Assembly (NCBI GenBank): GCA_041753155.1
Contig: JBGSVA010000021.1
Span: forward strand, 1,012 to 65,011
Origin: Thermodesulfobacteriota bacterium
Lineage (GTDB): Bacteria > Desulfobacterota_D > UBA1144 > Nemesobacterales > UBA2774
Direction of reading: 5' to 3'
Length of the DNA stretch: 64,000 nucleotides
Below are positions 1,935 through 9,625 of this stretch, piece after piece. The notes beneath the pieces are model-generated. The model had not been told where the DNA came from and ran no database searches. It was given only the letters and a program-made list of their open reading frames with translations. A program made the position numbers and the translations under genes. Position 1 is the first letter of the stretch. The number at the start of each line of letters is the position of its first letter.

Positions 1935-3014
1935 TCAGTCGACTACTACGCTTGATTCCACTTTACCCGTCTCCGGATCGTATATGTATTCTTCGCCCAG
2001 CGGATGAGCAGGGAAATCCCCTGTGGTCTCGAGCTCTATGAATTTTCTGAGCTCATCCAGGCTCCTCGGAAAATCTCCATATAGCTTTTTATATCTGGCG
2101 GACTTCGCGTTCAGGAATACAATCGCCTCCTGAATTCTCCGCTTCGAGAGATCGGAGCTTTTTACAGCTTCTATCTTGGGCGCGAGAATGAACTTGCCGC
2201 CCATAGGCGCTTCCGGAATTCCGTTTTTGACTACGCCCGACCGAGCCAAATCTTCAGGCGACGACGGCAGCCTTCCATAACGCTTTACGTACTCCTTTAA
2301 CGATTCCGTCAGCTTATCTTCGAGAGCCATCGTGTCTATCTCGTTTATATTCCTGAGCGCGAATTCCCTCCTCCCATCGCTCGGGCTCGTTTCGTAAATG
2401 ATTTCCCAGATCTTCCTCGAAAGCTCGTTGTTTCCTCCTCTCGCGTGAGCGGACGCAGCCATGCCCGCCATCGAGGCCTTTCTCAGCGGGGAGAGGCCCG
2501 GTTTTTCGGAGGCCTCCCTGAAGAGCTCTGCGGCTTTTTCGTAATCTTTCGGATAAAAATAGTAGATGAATGCCTCTTCGAGAGGCAGCTTGTAATTTTC
2601 GGGGTTGTTGCTCCTTCCCTTATCGAATAGCTCGATCCCCTTCATTGTTTCCCCGAGCCCGAATGGCGGGGGCTCAGCGAGGAACGTGCCCCCGTACCTG
2701 TATGCGTTCACGAACTTCGGGTCGAGGTCCGTGATGATATCGAAGTAGTGATAAAGCAGGTCGGGATTCTGCTCATTAGATTTCTTACTGCCGAAGTATT
2801 GGAGCGCCCTAAGCCAGTATATGTCCGCGAGGAGATCGTTGTAGCCTAGAGACAGCTTCTTAAGGGACGAAGACGATATGTAAAGGCTCTCTTCGACTGA
2901 CCGGAATCTGCCCCTTATCTCGTCGATCCTGATCTGAAACGGGATCGATACCGCAACGAGAGCGGCCAGCATGACAAGGGCGATCGTAGGTTTTATCGCG
3001 GTTCTGACTGACAT
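1935..3014 (-). CDS. membrane-anchored periplasmic protein downstream of an ABC-2 exporter (possible accessory component, PilG-like by position)
   Basis: One N-terminal transmembrane helix (IALVMLAALVAVSIPF) followed by a soluble repeat-like domain. The start lies 4 bp after the permease stop, so the two are translationally coupled. Confidence 0.35.
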   Translation of the reverse strand: MSVRTAIKPTIALVMLAALVAVSIPFQIRIDEIRGRFRSVEESLYISSSSLKKLSLGYNDLLADIYWLRALQYFGSKKSNEQNPDLLYHYFDIITDLDPKFVNAYRYGGTFLAEPPPFGLGETMKGIELFDKGRSNNPENYKLPLEEAFIYYFYPKDYEKAAELFREASEKPGLSPLRKASMAGMAASAHARGGNNELSRKIWEIIYETSPSDGRREFALRNINEIDTMALEDKLTESLKEYVKRYGRLPSSPEDLARSGVVKNGIPEAPMGGKFILAPKIEAVKSSDLSKRRIQEAIVFLNAKSARYKKLYGDFPRSLDELRKFIELETTGDFPAHPLGEEYIYDPETGKVESSVVVD

Positions 3015-3017
3015 CAG

Positions 3018-3821
3018 CTATTTAAACTCTTTCCTCTCGAAAATGATGGTCGCGAGTATGAGGAGTGCGAGTGTATATATGACCGCATATACCGTCGTAT
3101 ACAGAATCAGATCGGGGTTGACGATACCTCCGTATACGGCCTCGCTCCTCACGTCGAATTTCTCCAGATTGGGAATTATTCTGTATACCGCTTCTGAAAA
3201 GAGCGCGGTAAAGGGGCTTTTCACTTCCTCGGCGAATAGCCTGATATCGCTCGAGAAGCGGCCTATCGCGATGACGAAAAAGGTGAAGAGGGCGCTCATA
3301 ATGGGGGTCGTGAAGCTCGAGAATACGAGCGCAATGCCGATTACGACGAGGAATTCGAGGTATTCGAAATACACCGCGTTAAAAAACTCCGCGTAGTAAT
3401 GTCCCCCGTAATAAAAACTTATAAGCCCCTCGTATCTGATTTCTATTAACAGCACCAGAAGGAATAGAATAAGCGCCATGCCGAGCGTGATTACGAATAG
3501 AGTGATCCCCAGGCCCAGATATTTCCCGAATATGAATTCGTATCTCTTGATAGGCTTCGAGAAAATGTTGTAAACGGTTTTTCTCTCCACCTCTTTATAG
3601 ACGAGGCCTATACCGAGGAATACCGAGATCAGGATTCCGATTATGGATATGGCGGTGAGCCCCAGGTCCTTGACTATCTTGTTGTACTGCTCAGCCGATA
3701 TGCTGGCGAATACGAGAGAGCTCAGTATCATTATTATTGCGAATAGAATCAGGCTGTATAGGACCCTGTCCCTGATTGCTTCTATAAACGTATTGTGCGC
3801 GACACTCAGTATTCTTCTCAT
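3018..3821 (-). CDS. ABC-2 family transporter permease
   Basis: 267 aa with about 6 hydrophobic helices. It lies immediately downstream of the ABC ATPase. Confidence 0.7.
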   Translation of the reverse strand: MRRILSVAHNTFIEAIRDRVLYSLILFAIIMILSSLVFASISAEQYNKIVKDLGLTAISIIGILISVFLGIGLVYKEVERKTVYNIFSKPIKRYEFIFGKYLGLGITLFVITLGMALILFLLVLLIEIRYEGLISFYYGGHYYAEFFNAVYFEYLEFLVVIGIALVFSSFTTPIMSALFTFFVIAIGRFSSDIRLFAEEVKSPFTALFSEAVYRIIPNLEKFDVRSEAVYGGIVNPDLILYTTVYAVIYTLALLILATIIFERKEFK

Positions 3822-3854
3822 CTTATATTATTCGTGTGGCTGACACCGGAGCTT

Positions 3855-4799
3855 CTATTGTTCCTTTTGCGGGTTCCCCTTTTTGGCTTCCTCTACAAAA
3901 AGCCCTTCGAGGGATTTCCTGAGCGGGTGGATAGATACTATCTCGGCCGATGTGCGTGCGACGGCTTCGAGGACCCTCCGCTTGATGTCTTCGTCGAACT
4001 TGAGCACTATGTATCCGGCCCTCTGATCCATTTCCACCCTCAGGTCCTTTACTGACTGTTTGACTTCGTCACCGGGTCCTTCGAGATGCATTTCGTAGTC
4101 CGTGTGAATCTCTTTAAGCAGGTCACCGATCTTTCCGATTTTTATGACCGTGCCCCCCATGATTATCCCGACCCTGTCGCAGAGCGCTTCGACGTCAGAT
4201 AACATGTGGGAGCTGAGGAGTATCGTCTTTCCTTTCCGTTTCTCTTCTAGTATGAGGTCTTTTATCTCTCTCCTGCCTATCGGGTCGAGCCCGCTCATCG
4301 GCTCGTCGAGGATCATGAATTCCGGATCGTTCACGAGGGCCTGGGCGATGCCGATACGCTGGAGCATACCCTTCGAGTATTTTCTCATCTGCACCTTTTT
4401 CGCGTGCTCCATTCTGACTTTCCGTAGCAGCTCCTCTACTTTCTCGTGAAGGTATTTCCGCCTGAGGCCGTGGAGCTCGCCCATGTAGTAAAGGAGCTCC
4501 TCCCCGGTGAGATAATCGTAGAAGTAAGGGTTCTCCGGCAGGTAGCCGATCCTGCTTTTGGCCCCTGAGTCCGAGTGCTCTTTGCCGAGGAGCTCTATCT
4601 TCCCCTCGGTCGGGGTGACGAACCCGAGGATCGATTTGAAAGTCGTCGTCTTCCCCGCGCCGTTAGGCCCGACGAAGCCGAACACCTCGCCTTTATGGAC
4701 GTCGAATGTTACGTTCTTCAGGACGCGCGTCTTCTTGCCCGTGAATCCGGTTTTGTAGTCCTTTACGAGGTTCGTGATATTGAGTATTGCTTCTGACAT
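3855..4799 (-). CDS. ABC transporter ATP-binding protein
   Basis: Walker A motif GPNGAGKTT, signature LSGGMLQRIGIA, and Walker B ILDEP. Confidence 0.88.
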   Translation of the reverse strand: MSEAILNITNLVKDYKTGFTGKKTRVLKNVTFDVHKGEVFGFVGPNGAGKTTTFKSILGFVTPTEGKIELLGKEHSDSGAKSRIGYLPENPYFYDYLTGEELLYYMGELHGLRRKYLHEKVEELLRKVRMEHAKKVQMRKYSKGMLQRIGIAQALVNDPEFMILDEPMSGLDPIGRREIKDLILEEKRKGKTILLSSHMLSDVEALCDRVGIIMGGTVIKIGKIGDLLKEIHTDYEMHLEGPGDEVKQSVKDLRVEMDQRAGYIVLKFDEDIKRRVLEAVARTSAEIVSIHPLRKSLEGLFVEEAKKGNPQKEQ

Positions 4800-4878
4800 A
4801 ATCGGACATCTAAATATATGTTAATCAATGCCTGGAGGCAATACGTCGAATGGGGTGTTTGGGTAGTATCGATTAATT

Positions 4879-5478
4879 TTATCCGTCGCAGGCCGGGTCA
4901 TCGACGCCCGATTCAAACGTGCCGGATTGCCCGCTGCCTTGTGTGGAAACCGTACATTTTATGACTTTGTCTGTGAACGCGGAAAAATCTTTCCTGCCGT
5001 TTACCCTCGCGCTTGTCATAGAAGCTTCCCATCCGAAGTCTCCTTTGAGCGACTGAGCGTCGGTGCCGGCATCAGCGCTCCATGAGAGGCAGTACCCGGC
5101 TTTGGGATCGGCGCAATCGGCAGAGCTCGAAGGGCTCCCGTCGCTTGAAATCGCATCTTCGAATGTAGAATCTATTAGAGCGTCCTCTGGATCGCTTGTT
5201 CCTGATGGGTCCCTGAGTGTTCCCGCAGCGCCGAGCGCTCCGATTAAGTTTGTAAAGTCCCTGTCACCGTTATCGTCCAGGTCCTGTTCGAAATACTCGT
5301 ACTCGGCGTCTTTCAGGGTCTGCAGGGCCTTCCGCGCGTTAACCTCGTTTGACGAGATACGGGCTTTTAACAGGTTCGGTATAGCGATTGCGAGGAGAAT
5401 ACCTATAATCGCCGCAACTACAAGCAGCTCGATTAAGGTAAAGCCTTTTTCGAGCGTTCTTTTTTGCCGATTGATCAT
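4879..5478 (-). CDS. type IV pilin (prepilin with class III leader), paralog 1
   Basis: Leader ends ...KG, then FTLIELLVVAAIIGILLAIAIPN (prepilin peptidase site G|F, with Glu at +5). The variable C-terminal region is Cys-rich. Confidence 0.8.
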   Translation of the reverse strand: MINRQKRTLEKGFTLIELLVVAAIIGILLAIAIPNLLKARISSNEVNARKALQTLKDAEYEYFEQDLDDNGDRDFTNLIGALGAAGTLRDPSGTSDPEDALIDSTFEDAISSDGSPSSSADCADPKAGYCLSWSADAGTDAQSLKGDFGWEASMTSARVNGRKDFSAFTDKVIKCTVSTQGSGQSGTFESGVDDPACDG

Positions 5479-5506
5479 ATTCCTGCACTCTTCTTATTGA
5501 ATAAAT

Positions 5507-5523
5507 CGCAATATACATACCAA
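5507..5523 (-). promoter_or_regulatory. sigma-54 (-24/-12) promoter for pilin paralog 1
   Basis: Minus-strand sequence TGGTATG-TATA-TTGCG (GG-N10-GC) lies about 28 nt upstream of the ATG. Confidence 0.6.
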
Positions 5524-5642
5524 AACAAGATAAAAGCAGTTCTCAGGTGTACTGTTGCAACTTGCCGGTATTATTGCGATTAATGTTAATCGGAACGATT
5601 TAGATGAACTGGTTCTTTATGCCGATGATATTTCGCTCACCA

Positions 5643-5676
5643 AATGTGACAATATTTGTCGCCCAAATGCAATTTG
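5643..5676. promoter_or_regulatory. paired palindromes (GACAA-TAT-TTGTC and CAAAT-GCA-ATTTG) about 130 bp upstream of the pilin-1 sigma-54 promoter; candidate enhancer-binding-protein site
   Basis: The palindromes are seen directly in the sequence. The core AATGTGACAAT(A/T)TTTGTC recurs upstream of pilin 2. Confidence 0.5.
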
Positions 5677-5756
5677 TGTTCAGCGAATGGATCCATGTCG
5701 AGGAAGCGCTATATATGCTTATGATAAAATCGCGGAAAGGAATGTTAGTACTTCGG

Positions 5757-5800
5757 TAAAAAAAATGCGGCGGATTTGTTTACAAACCCGCCGCTTGTTA
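5757..5800 (-). terminator. intrinsic terminator downstream of pilin paralog 2
   Basis: Minus-strand GCGGCGGGTTTGTAAACAAATCCGCCGC hairpin followed by TTTTTTTT, about 45 nt after the stop codon. Confidence 0.7.
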
Positions 5801-5844
5801 ATTATCCTGAGAGTTACAAAACCTGATTTAAAGCTTAAAACAAA

Positions 5845-6426
5845 TTAGTCGCATCCGGCCGTTGTACGAATGGACTCGAAATTTCCCGGAGTTCCTGCTG
5901 TTCCGACTGAGCTGACCGTACATCTTATAGCACCGTCGCCGTAGACTGAGAAGTCCCTTCTGCCGGTCTTGTTGTAGCTGGTCATACTGGCCTGCCAGGC
6001 GATATCGTCGAGGTCGTCTCCTTCGGCGATTTCGGCGGAATCCCAGGTTAAACAGTAGCCGGCTTTGGGGTCGGTACAGCAGCTCCCGTCGGTCGAGCCG
6101 GCTGCACACACAGCACTATCAAAGCTACTGTCAACAAGCGCGTCCTCTTCTAAACCAGTGCCTTCCGGATCGCGAAGCATGGTCATATTGCTGGTGAAAT
6201 TCCTCTCGCCGTCGTCGTTGAGGTCCTGCTCGAAATACATGCCTTCCGCGTCCCTGAGCGTCTGCATGGACTTCCTGGCATTGGCTTCGTTCGCCGACAT
6301 TCTCGCCTTTATAAGGTTAGGTATAGCGATCGCGAGCAGTATGCCGATGATTGCCGCTACTACGAGAAGTTCGATAAGAGTGAAACCCTTCTCTCCCTTT
6401 TTTACCTTCTTTAATGTGCTTAACAT
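5845..6426 (-). CDS. type IV pilin (prepilin), paralog 2
   Basis: Leader MLSTLKKVKKGEKG|FTLIELLVVAAIIGILLAIAIPN. The first ~60 aa are near-identical to paralog 1 and the C-terminus has diverged. Confidence 0.8.
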   Translation of the reverse strand: MLSTLKKVKKGEKGFTLIELLVVAAIIGILLAIAIPNLIKARMSANEANARKSMQTLRDAEGMYFEQDLNDDGERNFTSNMTMLRDPEGTGLEEDALVDSSFDSAVCAAGSTDGSCCTDPKAGYCLTWDSAEIAEGDDLDDIAWQASMTSYNKTGRRDFSVYGDGAIRCTVSSVGTAGTPGNFESIRTTAGCD

Positions 6427-6468
6427 GAAAATAACCTCCTTTTCGGTAATTAGTCTTGATGATTAAGG

Positions 6469-6485
6469 ATGCAAAGGCCGTGCCA
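6469..6485 (-). promoter_or_regulatory. sigma-54 (-24/-12) promoter for pilin paralog 2
   Basis: Minus-strand TGGCACG-GCCT-TTGCAT lies about 45 nt upstream of the ATG. A Shine-Dalgarno AAGGAGG sits 8 nt before the ATG. Confidence 0.75.
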
Positions 6486-6606
6486 TGTGCAGCGGTTTCG
6501 CCATCTGGAAAGCGTAAGATGCCATGATCTAATGGGAAACCATCATTCGAGTATGTGGACAAGCCGAGGCAGGCTGCCCCGGCTGTACTCCCGGATTTCA
6601 GTAGAT

Positions 6607-6653
6607 GCGACACTTTTTGGTCGCGATCTCCGCAATGTGACAATTTTTGTCAG
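6607..6653. promoter_or_regulatory. tandem palindromes GCGAC-N8-GTCGC and TGACA-ATTTT-TGTCA about 120-170 bp upstream of the pilin-2 sigma-54 promoter; candidate enhancer-binding-protein site
   Basis: Seen directly in the sequence. It shares AATGTGACAAT.TTTGTC with the pilin-1 upstream site. Confidence 0.5.
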
Positions 6654-6761
6654 TGTATCTGTTTTGGTGACCGGGAGCGCGGTTCAAATGAATCAATATT
6701 TATCAATTAGAGGAAGTATGCTATTTTATACTACCTATTTCAGAAGGAGGCGGTTTGAGCC

Positions 6762-7292
6762 ATGCGTAGACATAAGCATTTAGTTTTCCCATTGATGATT
6801 TGCCTCACGGTATTCGCCCTGTTCGTTACAGGATGCACGAATATAAAAACTACTTCCTACTTTACGCCGACAAAGACAAAGCTCCGTGACTTTCAGGCTT
6901 TACAGGTCGAGACGTTCGAGACCGAGATCGAGTACTTCCCGAAAGACGCCCTTACGAAGCTCCCGGATAAAACGGCCGCCCTCATCGAAGCCGAGAACAA
7001 GTTCAAAGAGGTCAGATACGGTGTAATTGAAAATATTCCCGCTGAGGATACTATAGTATTGTTAGGCGAGGTAAGTGAATACAGGCCGAGCTCCGATGTT
7101 TCGTACGAGGGCGGGGCCCTTAAATTCGGCGAAGTATCGATTGCCATTAAGCTCGCGCTTGTGAATAAAGCGACGGGAGACGAAATCGCCACGGGAGAGG
7201 TGAACGGTTTCAGTTCCACCGGATTTATGGCGAAGGATATTTTCGAAAGTATGGCCGAGGAAATAGTCAAGTATATAAACGAGACCTATTGA
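6762..7292 (+). CDS. hypothetical lipoprotein
   Basis: Signal peptide with lipobox LFVTGC. No recognisable catalytic motifs. Confidence 0.5.
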   Translation: MRRHKHLVFPLMICLTVFALFVTGCTNIKTTSYFTPTKTKLRDFQALQVETFETEIEYFPKDALTKLPDKTAALIEAENKFKEVRYGVIENIPAEDTIVLLGEVSEYRPSSDVSYEGGALKFGEVSIAIKLALVNKATGDEIATGEVNGFSSTGFMAKDIFESMAEEIVKYINETY

Positions 7293-7325: not shown

Positions 7326-8348
7326 TTGGAGGATGATATGAGAAAGTTTATTTTTTGTCTTTTACTGCTGCCCGTAACCATTGGCGCATTTTATCTGGCC
7401 GGGTCCGCGGCATACGCCCAGGATGCCGGGGGCGCCGCGGGTCTTTACAAACAGGGCAGAGAAGAGTTTCTGAAGTTCACGCCCGGGGGATTTGACAAGG
7501 CGATTGAGCTCTATAATCAGGCTATAAAGGCCGACCCGAATTACGCTCAGGCATACGCGGGCCTGGCGGAAGTATATTCCTTCATGGGTTTTTACAGGTA
7601 TCAGGTAAGGGAGGAATACGAGAACTACTATACGCAGTCGTACACGAACATGACAAAGGCGCTGCAGATAAATCCGAACCTCGAAGAGGTGCAGCTTGCG
7701 CTCGCATATACTTATCTCCAGCTGAGCAGGGAGAAAGAGGCGAAGACGACCGCGCAGAAGATACTGGCTAAGAACCCGAACAACACAGAAGCCATTTACA
7801 TTCTTTGGTCGGCCAGCGGAGAGAACCCCGACTCCCCTGAAATAAGAAAAGTCCTCGAGCTCAATCCGAAGTTCGTGCCGGCATACGTAGGGCTCGCAAA
7901 CTCCTTGTTCTTTAAGAAAAGGGCTTACGGACAGGCGACCCAGTACTTCAGAAAAGCGGCGGAAATAGCCCCTTCGGCGCAGATACACAACCTGTTCGGC
8001 ACCGCTCTCAGGACTCAGGGCCACTACAACGAAGCGATCGACGAATACGAGAAGGCAATAAATGAGAACCAGAATTATGCGCCCGCGTACATGAATCTCG
8101 GCATTACGTATTATTACCTCAACAAATTCAACCAGAATATCGACAACCAGAAGAAAGCGATATCGCTTAACCCGAATTATCCCGATGCGTACTTTTTTAT
8201 AGCGCAGGGTTACGAGAAGGCTAACAACCCTCAACAGGCGGTCGTTTACTACAAGAAATTCCTCGAAGTGTCGCTCGAGCAGGAGATGTACGCCGGTTAT
8301 GCCGCGCAGGCCAAGGAGAGGATTTCGGCGCTCGGCGGCGGCAAGTAA
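7326..8348 (+). CDS. secreted TPR-repeat protein
   Basis: N-terminal signal peptide. There are multiple 34-residue repeats with the (A/Y)xxxAxxY-N-L-G pattern (e.g. ADPNYAQAYAGLAEVY, NPNYPDAYFFIAQGY). Confidence 0.75.
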   Translation: MEDDMRKFIFCLLLLPVTIGAFYLAGSAAYAQDAGGAAGLYKQGREEFLKFTPGGFDKAIELYNQAIKADPNYAQAYAGLAEVYSFMGFYRYQVREEYENYYTQSYTNMTKALQINPNLEEVQLALAYTYLQLSREKEAKTTAQKILAKNPNNTEAIYILWSASGENPDSPEIRKVLELNPKFVPAYVGLANSLFFKKRAYGQATQYFRKAAEIAPSAQIHNLFGTALRTQGHYNEAIDEYEKAINENQNYAPAYMNLGITYYYLNKFNQNIDNQKKAISLNPNYPDAYFFIAQGYEKANNPQQAVVYYKKFLEVSLEQEMYAGYAAQAKERISALGGGK

Positions 8349-8824: not shown

Positions 8825-9625
8825 TTAGATAACGGTCACGTCTCCCGTTATTATTTTGACCATGCTCTCGTCCTCTTTTCTAATCAGCAGGTGCCCCTCG
8901 CCGTCTATCCCGGTTGCGGTACCTTCGATTACCTTTCCGTCTTCCGTGCTGACCCTGACGCGCTTATTAAATCCGCCCCACCTTTCTGTCCATTCCTTGA
9001 TTATAGAGGACTTTCCCCGCCTGTTGAACGTTTGATACCACGATTCGAGCTCGTAGAGGAGGTCTCCCGCGAATTTAGCCCTGTCGACGTCTCCGCCGAG
9101 ATTCTCTCTGATGGACGTTGCGGATTTCGCGGTCTCTCCCAGCTCGCGCCTCATTTGTTCTCTGGTCATGTTTATATTAACCCCGATCCCGACAATGATA
9201 TAATCGACCCTGTCGCCCCTGGGCTCCATTTCGGTGAGCACGCCCGCAGCCTTTTTGCCCTCGATCAGCACGTCGTTCGGCCATTTTATGGACGTGTTCC
9301 GCACGCCTGTTTTTTTAATCGTTTCCGTGATCGCAATAGAGGCGAGGAGTGTGAGGAGCGGCGATTCCCATGCCGGTATGGAGGGCCTGAACAGTACCGA
9401 CATGTAGAGGTTCATACCGGGCGGCGAGACCTATTTCCGTCCGAGCCTTCCCTTCCCGCTAGTCTGCTTGTCCGCGATGACCGTAGTCCCTTCGGAGGCG
9501 CCGCTCTGGGCGAGCCTCGATAAAACGGTGTTCGTGGACCCGGTCTCATCGAAGTAGTGGATGACTTTGCCGAACGTCTCGGTTTTGAGGAGACCGTTTA
9601 ATTTTCGTATCATCGGCGATGTCAT
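8825..9625 (-). pseudogene. birA: biotin--[acetyl-CoA-carboxylase] ligase (group I, no HTH) interrupted by one in-frame TAG
   Basis: The N-terminal fragment (9431..9625) ends ...QTSGKGRLGRK-TAG. The same frame continues VSPPGMNLYMSVLFRP... through 8825. The TAG (9431-9433) sits where the BirA GRxGRxW motif has an invariant Trp (TGG). Confidence 0.7.

Follow-up and report, generated by a model that had tools for sequence, protein, structure and literature searches.

The locus described here lies in a window of 64 kb (the whole stretch of DNA analysed, 64,000 nucleotides) from an uncultured Dadabacteria/Thermodesulfobacteriota-like bacterium which possesses a two-gene type IV pilin module. We consider, with a probability of about 0.8, that the two genes are served by separate sigma-54 promoters answering a shared, unlinked enhancer-binding protein (EBP) of the NtrC family, and that the upstream gene, pilA1, provides the major pilin and the downstream gene, pilA2, a second one.

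The locus and the sequences compared

Both prepilin genes are encoded on the minus strand (Table 1), and all DNA features which an earlier note on this locus had described were found on that strand at their coordinates. Directly downstream of the pilins come an ABC ATPase gene, an ABC-2-type membrane protein gene and a gene for a third protein, of 359 aa, which is anchored in the membrane by its N-terminus; these ABC genes have a conserved promoter-like block of their own. The locus was compared with about 88 syntenic or homologous loci (429 kb) from Dadabacteria/Thermodesulfobacteriota-like MAGs, many of which are closely related to one another, so that counts over this set are not independent. 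The relatives were found by scanning metagenome contigs with a pilin alignment from which the N-terminal helix had been removed (mature residue 27 onwards); the full-length alignment, used on genome contigs, gave 80 unrelated pilin loci with patterns stemming from the generic N-terminal helix and was set aside. No Rfam family matched anywhere in the window, and a Pfam survey of the 64 kb detected none of the pilus assembly genes (PilB/C/D/M-Q, PilT).

Table 1. Positions of the genes and signals at the two-pilin locus, numbered from the first letter of the window. A slash separates prepilin leader and mature protein.
Feature	Position	Strand	Remarks
pilA1	5845..6426	-	upstream pilin gene, 'pilin 2' of the earlier note; 193 aa
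pilA2	4879..5478	-	downstream pilin gene, 'pilin 1' of the earlier note; 199 aa
pilA1 -24/-12 element	6470..6485	-	TGGCACGgcctTTGCA; predicted transcription start near 6459
pilA2 -24/-12 element	5508..5523	-	TGGTATGtataTTGCG; predicted transcription start near 5497
pilA1 distal putative enhancer dyad	6638..6652	.	TGACAAAAATTGTCA on gene strand; centre ~-186 from predicted start
pilA1 proximal putative enhancer site	6607..6624	.	GCGAC-N8-GTCGC; gene strand GCGACcAAAAAgTGTCGC; centre ~-157
pilA2 single putative enhancer dyad	5647..5661	.	CGACAAATATTGTCA on gene strand; centre ~-157 from predicted start
Box just 5' of pilA2 dyad	5664..5676	.	CAAATGCAATTTG; core conserved in the alignment of second-pilin regions
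pilA1 intrinsic terminator	5759..5794	-	12-bp stem, then U8
pilA1 Shine-Dalgarno	6435..6439	-	GGAGG (consensus), 8 nt before ATG
pilA1 prepilin leader			MLSTLKKVKKGEKG/FTLIELL; 14 residues
pilA2 prepilin leader			MINRQKRTLEKG/FTLIELL; 12 residues

A sigma-54-type promoter before each pilin gene

Each pilin gene is preceded by an element with GG at -24 and GC at -12, 10 bp apart, in a TGGCAC-N5-TTGC context. The pilA1 element (6485..6470) is the sole exact match to TGGCACG-N4-TTGCW in the 64 kb (expected 0.00), and the relaxed pattern TGGYAY-N5-TTGC matched in the window only at the two pilin promoters (expected 0.12). The -24 element of pilA2 is off consensus (TGGTAT), and its promoter is predicted to be weaker than the consensus promoter of pilA1. 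In related loci TGGCAC-N5-TTGCA is kept at -88..-101 from the Gly(-1) codon of first and single pilins, and 15 second-pilin regions have the consensus TGGTATgtAtATTGCt at -64..-90. Of the 86 pilin upstream regions from these partly interrelated loci, 60 carry at a fixed offset a GG-N10-GC element with a score of 10/12 or more, and two loci (L083 and L086) had no recognisable -24/-12 element before the second pilin. Phylogenetic footprints across dozens of diverged loci thus bear out the earlier proposal that each gene has its own sigma-54-type promoter together with an enhancer-like upstream site, and both pilA1 and pilA2 are probably sigma-54 dependent. An rpoN gene was found neither in the window (Pfam survey) nor in any fetched locus. 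A sigma-70-like match, TTGTCA-16-TATCAT, overlaps the pilA2 dyad and was rejected as a chance occurrence, since its -10 element is not conserved in relatives.

Dyads upstream of the promoters

Further upstream both genes share a dyad with the core TGACA-N5-TGTCA. At up to 3 mismatches the 18-mer AATGTGACAATWTTTGTC occurs in the window at 5643-5660 and 6634-6651 only (expected 0.05), and the palindromes lie 130-160 bp upstream of the -24 elements, within the distance given earlier. Among relatives the core is kept about 130-190 bp upstream despite a spacer which is only about 40-50% identical; when 6220..5500 of the window is aligned with locus L096 (about 40-50% identical), the dyad and the -24/-12 element stand at unchanged offsets. 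In the 429 kb there are 59 perfect copies of TGACA-N5-TGTCA, of which 43 fall in the 35 kb of sequence that, taken together, lies upstream of the pilins recognised by the scan and the remaining 16 also adjoin pilin genes, missed by the regular expression, so that all 59 are pilin-adjacent.

First and single pilins of related loci often have two dyads, the second lying 29-33 bp downstream of the first, and second pilins have one; some distant single-pilin loci have three. The distal pilA1 dyad recurs in related loci in a perfect or 9/10 version, and of the proximal site the right half, AAAAAnTGTCrCA, is conserved. For pilA2 the consensus tGACAAAtaTTGTCAc is kept in 13 second-pilin regions. Two additional palindromes had been reported earlier, and both GCGAC-N8-GTCGC (6607-6624) and CAAATGCAATTTG (5664-5676) are indeed present; the latter is the box 5' of the pilA2 dyad, and relatives preserve its core AAAtTGCr but not its palindromic arms.

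By their position the dyads conform to upstream activating sequences, which lie 80-200 bp upstream of the -24/-12 element and usually number two or more. At glnAp2 the NtrC enhancer consists of two dyads spaced by about three helical turns, which nucleate the activator oligomer at a distance of more than 100 bp upstream of the sigma-54 promoter. The paired dyads of pilA1 resemble it in this respect, but their half-site sequence is a different one, they are placed further upstream (about -157 and -186), and pilA2 has one clear dyad. Because position, pairing and association with sigma-54 promoters match this established architecture, we read the dyads, by analogy, as putative EBP enhancers. In the 46 regions examined, the stretch between dyad and promoter showed no enrichment of the E. 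coli-type IHF consensus WATCAANNNNTTR (exact matches, 0 against 0.8 expected; with one mismatch, 13 against 16.5 expected). A CRP/FNR-type site was considered and rejected: TGTGA..TCACA does appear in a few copies, but with N10 and not N6, and the family consensus is TGACA-N5-TGTCA. A third 'site', TTGATAAATATTGAT, hinted at by the MAFFT alignment, more plausibly belongs to the conserved promoter region of the divergent lipoprotein gene.

Candidates for the activator

A six-frame search for the GAFTGA motif revealed no EBP gene in the 64 kb window or in the approximately 88 related loci, and no protein of the window contained a Sigma54_activat domain in the Pfam survey. The activator could be the canonical PilS-PilR pair, sensing pilin levels or a surface signal and binding to the dyads, and we rate this possibility at somewhat less than an even chance. 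In Pseudomonas, Myxococcus and Geobacter, pilA depends on sigma-54 and is activated by PilR (PMC2725144, PMC6058289, PMC6211767), the TGTC core described for PilR sites of P. aeruginosa is present in each half-site of the dyad (PMC6058289), and the N-terminal helix of our pilins is most similar to those of Myxococcus and Geobacter. Also, as in the pilA genes of P. aeruginosa, M. xanthus and G. sulfurreducens, a -24/-12 promoter is combined with activator sites about 100-200 bp upstream (PMC2725144, PMC6058289). However, neither the window nor the approximately 88 loci carry an NtrC-family regulator with PilS beside the pilin or pil cluster, whereas in Geobacter pilR is situated immediately upstream of pilA (PMC2725144). 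Furthermore, the inverted TGACA-N5-TGTCA dyad with its 5-bp spacer, for all its TGTC half-sites, is arranged differently from the TGT-N11-ACA with nearby TGTC/GTCT elements which is the hallmark of P. aeruginosa PilR sites (PMC8035640, PMC6058289). The locus also departs from the pilA loci of the three species in having no pilus assembly genes adjacent to it and in possessing two separately promoted pilin genes.

A more specific version of our reading is that an unlinked EBP of previously undescribed specificity (TGACA-N5-TGTCA), possibly not PilR, serves a two-pilin module across Dadabacteria-like bacteria, in which the hypervariable pilA1 and the conserved pilA2 build either two distinct filaments, like the wide and narrow pili of Thermus, or one filament with a conserved tip or priming subunit, the ratio being set by the unequal strengths of promoters and enhancers; taken as a whole, this version is doubtful. 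Still less likely, in our judgment, is that a repressor or another non-EBP factor uses the dyad as its operator and that the EBP binds elsewhere or acts without sequence-specific binding. Many helix-turn-helix factors typically recognise such dyads, the dyad has not been connected with any EBP and pilA2 has only one; yet a place at about -157 to -186 from the predicted start is what an EBP enhancer usually occupies and is unusual for a repressor, and the same holds for paired sites about 30 bp apart which are tied strictly to sigma-54 promoters.

Termination and translation signals

The upstream gene, called pilin 2 in the earlier note, was said there to be independently terminated, and it does end in a strong terminator (5794..5767 plus the U8 run), which folds at -22 kcal/mol with z = -6.5. 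Related loci have equivalent hairpins behind their first pilin, and nothing comparable was found after pilA2. The ribosome-binding sites of the two genes also differ in strength: AAGGAGGT is conserved in first pilins, and those of second pilins are weak, the one of pilA2 being of the AGGA type only.

Type IV pilin features of the two proteins

Both proteins match the Pfam model PF07963 (N_methyl) at 32-36 bits against a cut-off of 21.2, and TIGR02532 also scores above its cut-off. The residues Gly(-1), Phe(+1) and Glu(+5) that mark a class III signal peptide are present in both, together with a hydrophobic N-terminal helix (KG/FTLIELLVVAAIIGILLAIAIPN in either case). Their leaders of 14 and 12 residues are longer than the classical T4a ones, typically of fewer than 10 residues, and shorter than those of T4b pilins. 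The same fold is predicted for both, namely a long alpha1 helix on a 4-stranded antiparallel sheet, as in pilins. The best structural matches of both proteins are type IV pilins, with Thermus PilA4 on top in either case, and among solved sequences Geobacter PilA-N and M. xanthus PilA come closest. A DxDxDG-like loop is a possible Ca2+ site.

The C-terminal domains of the two had been described as unrelated, which is incorrect: they are homologous, being 45% identical with four Cys in common and having the same predicted pilin fold. One Cys pair (C169/C192 in pilA1, C175/C197 in pilA2) is invariant across 72 family members, and the second (C117/C125 and C122/C130) is conserved in at least 90% of them; these pairs probably form the disulfide bonds of the C-terminal region which is characteristic of such pilins. 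It is very unlikely that the genes encode type II secretion pseudopilins or other non-pilus prepilin-like proteins, given the structural matches to type IV pilins: the GspG match covers the N-terminal helix only and stays below its cut-off (37 against 88.9 bits), the mature proteins have a C-terminal Cys pair and, at about 180 aa, exceed GspG in size, no gsp genes are nearby, and a hypervariable globular domain, as described below, is typical of exposed major pilins.

Evolution of the pair

Second pilins form a separate clade and each copy has its own clade of orthologues; pilA1 and pilA2 are ancient paralogues. They have evolved at very different rates. Where relatives share 95-96% identity in the ABC ATPase, the figure is 87-91% for pilA2 and only 67-82% for pilA1. 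The globular domain of pilA1 is hypervariable and recombining among close relatives, and the conservation of pilA2 is nearly that of a housekeeping gene. The locus as a whole is a recombination mosaic between lineages. The earlier note had envisaged antigenic or functional variation, of which hypervariability was seen in the globular domain of the upstream pilin only; of programmed switching there is no sign. It is highly improbable that antigenic variation is programmed here, whether one copy is the expressed locus and the other a donor cassette or the cell switches between copies. Tandem paralogues with a near-identical N-terminal helix could support recombination, and the locus is mosaic, but both genes are complete with conserved promoters and start codons of their own, they belong to separate, old orthologue clades, pilA2 is strongly conserved, and the locus showed neither an invertible element or repeat nor any silent partial cassette.

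Proposed roles of the two pilins

In the two-pilin module that we favour, a separate sigma-54 promoter would drive each pilin gene. The activator, an NtrC-family EBP whose gene would lie elsewhere in the genome, would bind the TGACA-N5-TGTCA dyads about 130-190 bp upstream, oligomerise there, reach the sigma-54 holoenzyme by DNA looping and open the promoter at the expense of ATP. With a -24/-12 element and a ribosome-binding site that both follow the consensus, a pair of dyads spaced by about 30 bp and a strong terminator, pilA1 would act as a monocistronic, high-output unit and is likely to encode the major filament subunit. The single dyad of pilA2, at -157, would work at a distance equal to that of the proximal pilA1 site. 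From the weaker -24 element, the single dyad, the weak ribosome-binding site, the lack of a terminator and the nearly housekeeping conservation of pilA2, we infer that it may be a lower-abundance, functionally constrained second pilin, alternative or accessory, which would answer the same activator. Several observations count against the module: neither rpoN nor an EBP gene turned up in the window or the fetched loci, the 64 kb contain no pilus assembly genes, the -24 element of pilA2 is off consensus, L083 and L086 show no such element before their second pilin, and the IHF consensus is not enriched.

Relation to known systems

Paired pilA paralogues are on record in Pseudomonas stutzeri (pilAI/pilAII), Stigmatella aurantiaca (tandem pilA) and Thermus thermophilus (PilA4/PilA5), and our pair resembles them in that a genome holds two related pilins, of about 55-70% similarity, presumably with different roles (PMC6060248). 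Unlike in those pairs, here each copy has a conserved sigma-54 promoter and a putative enhancer, which differ in strength between the copies, the pair has been passed on stably throughout an uncultured lineage, and one copy evolves fast and the other slowly. In layout the genes downstream recall M. xanthus pilA-pilGHI, where genes for the same three kinds of protein (ABC ATPase, ABC-2-type membrane protein, membrane-anchored third protein) likewise follow the pilin directly; PilGHI is reported to be needed for pilus assembly and PilA export (PMC3924187). The two loci differ, as the order here is ATPase, permease, third protein and the ABC genes have their own promoter-like block.

Control of pili by sigma-54 and an upstream activator is well known; the locus is ordinary in kind and leaves the understanding of such control unchanged. 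What it provides is a cis-regulatory map for the pilus genes of an uncultured lineage, comprising two promoters, three putative activator sites, a terminator and predicted starts, and a dyad motif with which complete genomes can be searched for the activator and its regulon. The contrast of a major pilin that recombines and is hypervariable with a conserved, co-regulated paralogue suggests a division of labour between the two.

Two related pilin genes and their proteins

The region 4879-6761 holds two minus-strand ORFs, the upstream pilA1 and the downstream pilA2, both of them pilin genes which share the prepilin cleavage/methylation motif KG/FTLIELLVVAAIIGILLAIAIPN and match Pfam PF07963 above its cut-off. 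Their proteins share 57% identity across 190 residues (E = 1e-60), and past mature residue 53 the identity is still 45%, with a local alignment score of 280 vs 38 +/- 7.5 for shuffled sequence. Four Cys positions are common to both, and the AF2 models (pLDDT 85 and 81) present the same order of elements, a ~50-residue alpha1 helix and then four strands. The C-terminal domains, which the earlier note had called unrelated, are thus clearly related. The M. xanthus pilus was the top Foldseek match of pilA1; the nearest solved chains by sequence, Geobacter PilA-N and M. xanthus PilA, match in the helix only, and the top NCBIfam match, the Myxococcus PilA model, fell under its cut-off. The family yielded >4000 matches, the best 120 being full length at 59-94% identity, and its members come from MAGs named Candidatus Dadabacteria, Thermodesulfobacteriota or Deltaproteobacteria. 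In both pilins, and in essentially all 72 aligned members, alpha1 is directly followed by E-Q-D-L-[DN]-[DN]-[DN]-G-x-R-[DN]-[FY], a sequence resembling a DxDxDG calcium-binding loop.

Features of the pilin locus and its neighbours
Feature	Position	Strand	Remark
pilA1	6426..5845	minus	ORF, 193 aa; pilin 2 of the earlier note
pilA2	5478..4879	minus	ORF, 199 aa; pilin 1 of the earlier note
E-Q-D-L-type loop	6208-6225; 5266-5283		pilA1 residues 68-73; pilA2 residues 66-71; family alignment
-24/-12 element of pilA1	6485..6470	minus	TGGCACGgcctTTGCA
-24/-12 element of pilA2	5523..5508	minus	TGGTATGtataTTGCG
18-mer AATGTGACAATWTTTGTC	5643-5660 and 6634-6651		one copy upstream of each pilin gene
GCGAC-N8-GTCGC	6607-6624		proximal pilA1 site
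CAAATGCAATTTG	5664-5676		adjoins pilA2 dyad
Intrinsic terminator of pilA1	5794..5759	minus	12-bp hairpin plus U8
ABC ATPase	4799..3855	minus	
ABC-2 permease	3018-3821	minus	
359-aa protein	1935-3014	minus	no Pfam or NCBIfam match
Lipoprotein gene	6762..7292	plus	divergent from pilins
TPR protein	7326-8348	plus	divergent from pilins

Sigma-54-type promoters and upstream dyads

All the DNA motifs listed in the earlier note, including both -24/-12 elements, were found in the window. The 64 kb contain a single exact sigma-54 consensus (0/100 shuffles), and the relaxed TGGYAY-N5-TTGC picks out only these two pilin sites in the window (0.12 expected). We compared the window with 7 syntenic loci obtained by exact protein look-up and 80 from metagenome contigs. 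Of 86 regions upstream of pilin genes, 60 had a GG-N10-GC element (>=10/12) whose distance from the Gly(-1) codon is fixed, a count that is not independent as many of the loci are closely related to one another. For first or single pilins this offset is -88 to -101; for second pilins it ranges from -64 to -90 and is mostly -74 to -82. The consensus also differs between the classes, being TGGCAcgggctTTGCA, then AAGGAGGT, in first/single pilins, and TGGTATgtAtATTGCt, then merely a weak ribosome-binding site, in second pilins; two relatives, L083 and L086, have no recognisable element before the second pilin. The clearest footprint for the pilA2 promoter and dyad is given by the window and the related locus L096. 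These two share 90-100% identity in the flanking genes and in the coding sequence of pilA2. The pilA1 3' half and the spacer (6220..5500) have diverged to just ~40-50% identity, despite which the dyad and the -24/-12 element stand at the same offsets. A sigma-70-like match overlapping the pilA2 dyad, TTGTCA-16-TATCAT, was dropped as not conserved.

The 18-mer has no further match in the window at <=3 mismatches (0.05 expected). Its conserved core is the inverted dyad TGACA-N5-TGTCA, found in the window at <=1 mismatch at the two pilin sites only. A search of 429 kb of related loci returned 59 perfect dyads, all beside pilin genes: 43 fall in the 35 kb of sequence that make up the upstream regions of recognised pilin genes, and the remaining 16 adjoin pilin genes missed by the recognition pattern. 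Upstream of first/single pilins there are often two sites, spaced 29-33 bp (three in some distant single-pilin loci), the distal one reading TGACAAwwTTTGTCACA and the proximal one conserved in its right half, AAAAAnTGTCrCA. In second pilins there is a single dyad, with a conserved AAAtTGCr box before it. The additional palindromes reported before are indeed present; GCGAC-N8-GTCGC, however, is the proximal site with the conserved right half and therefore a second copy of the same element rather than a distinct palindrome, and the palindromic arms of CAAATGCAATTTG are not conserved in the second-pilin alignment. Assuming transcription starts 12 nt downstream of the -12 C, the dyad centres would lie near -186 and -157 for pilA1 and at -157 for pilA2. 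The dyad-promoter spacer showed no enrichment of the E. coli-type IHF site.

Putative activator

No ORF bearing GAFTGA, the signature of sigma-54 enhancer-binding proteins (EBPs), was found in the window or any fetched locus; the Pfam survey of the window gave housekeeping genes only and the Rfam scan of the whole window no matches. P. aeruginosa PilR sites read TGT-N11-ACA with TGTC/GTCT elements nearby (PMC8035640, PMC6058289); the TGTC core is shared but the arrangement here differs. Geobacter pilR is immediately upstream of pilA (PMC2725144), a linkage absent here. Of the PilR-type layout proposed earlier, the -24/-12 elements and upstream sites hold, and any membership of the PilR regulon is putative. 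By analogy, the layout would function as PilR-controlled pilin promoters do. In the most likely mechanism, a AAA+ activator that binds DNA and is encoded at another place in the genome would attach to the dyads as dimers, assemble into a higher oligomer, more readily at the two-site pilA1 enhancer, and by looping contact the sigma-54 holoenzyme at the -24/-12 element and drive open-complex formation.

Transcription units and expression

The terminator that had been ascribed to pilA1 was confirmed (-22 kcal/mol, z = -6.5), and first pilins of relatives likewise end in one; being strong, it makes a separate promoter necessary for pilA2. With its consensus promoter, pair of sites, consensus ribosome-binding site and this terminator, pilA1 is consistent with a monocistronic gene that yields a major pilin at high expression. 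Owing to its TGGTAT -24 element, single site and weak ribosome-binding site, pilA2 would be produced less abundantly in response to the signal that acts on pilA1; TGGTAT is likewise found in the Klebsiella nifH promoter, which depends strongly on its activator. These expression levels and roles are inferences.

There is no stable structure 3' of pilA2 (folding z = -0.4), and read-through into the ABC genes is possible. Immediately 5' of the ABC ATPase gene, most syntenic loci conserve a block, TATTGCCTCCaGGCAttGATTAACATATATTTAGATGTCC (~4803-4845, minus), even where a single, terminated pilin precedes, so that the ABC genes probably have their own promoter. The block contains a sigma-70-like TTGCCT-17-TATATT ending ~13 nt before the ABC ATPase ATG, and an mRNA starting from it would have almost no leader and lack a visible Shine-Dalgarno. 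In each syntenic locus the trio of ABC ATPase, ABC-2 permease and 359-aa protein (1935-4799) comes after the pilin(s); it recalls, in gene arrangement, M. xanthus pilA-pilGHI, whose ABC system is reported necessary for pilus assembly and PilA export (PMC3924187, PMC6060248).

Flanking genes

On one flank the conserved order is AsmA-like, small ORF, birA, small ORF, TPR protein and 176-aa lipoprotein; the pilin(s) come next, followed by ABC ATPase, ABC-2 permease, 359-aa protein, greA and carB. An in-frame TAG at 9431-9433 (minus) interrupts birA (9625..8825) where relatives have Trp (GRLGRK*VSPPG vs GRLGRKWFSPPG in the related locus L081); this single TGG-to-TAG change represents a genuine nonsense mutation or else an assembly/consensus error. 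Between the lipoprotein gene and the pilA1 enhancer (~6690-6740), a ~24-nt block GGTAGTATAAAATAGCATACTTCC (pilin strand) and TTGATAAATATT are almost invariant across genomes with pilins just 65-83% identical, and probably belong to the divergent lipoprotein-TPR operon, as its promoter or 5' leader. The TPR protein has as its top NCBIfam matches two type IV pilus TPR proteins, PilW (81.6 bits, cut-off 154) and Tgl (55 bits, cut-off 225). Neither match reaches its cut-off, and the similarity could simply be that of TPR proteins in general; even so, the conserved place beside the pilins is suggestive.

Evolution of the two copies

Second pilins form their own clade in a neighbour-joining tree, so that the duplication is old, with both copies retained; a few genomes have a single pilin (L084, L094, L098, L106) and one has a lineage-specific duplicate (L088). 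In the closest relatives, L092, L096 and L102, the ABC ATPase is 95-96% and the permease 99% identical, pilA2 87-91% (tblastn; globular domain 84-93%) and pilA1 67-82%; against L096 the pilA1 N-terminal part is 52/54 identical and the globular domain, with indels, 75/134 (56%). The evolutionary rates of the two genes thus differ widely. The spacer is 77-93% identical to that of L092, in which pilA2 is less similar than in L096, so that the window, like L096 in pilA2 and like L092 in the pilA1 3' half and spacer, is a recombination mosaic. A variable pilA1 beside a conserved pilA2 is the pattern usually left where diversifying selection acts on an exposed major pilin next to a constrained paralogue. 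As to the antigenic or functional variation suggested earlier, the variation seen is from strain to strain, and no evidence was found for programmed switching within a genome.

Control of pilin genes by sigma-54 and an EBP is well known, as is the duplication of pilA (PMC2725144, PMC6058289, PMC6060248). What is new here is the lineage, the precise dyad and the lack of a linked regulator, together with the fact that one variable and one conserved pilin, with separate promoters, are stably paired.
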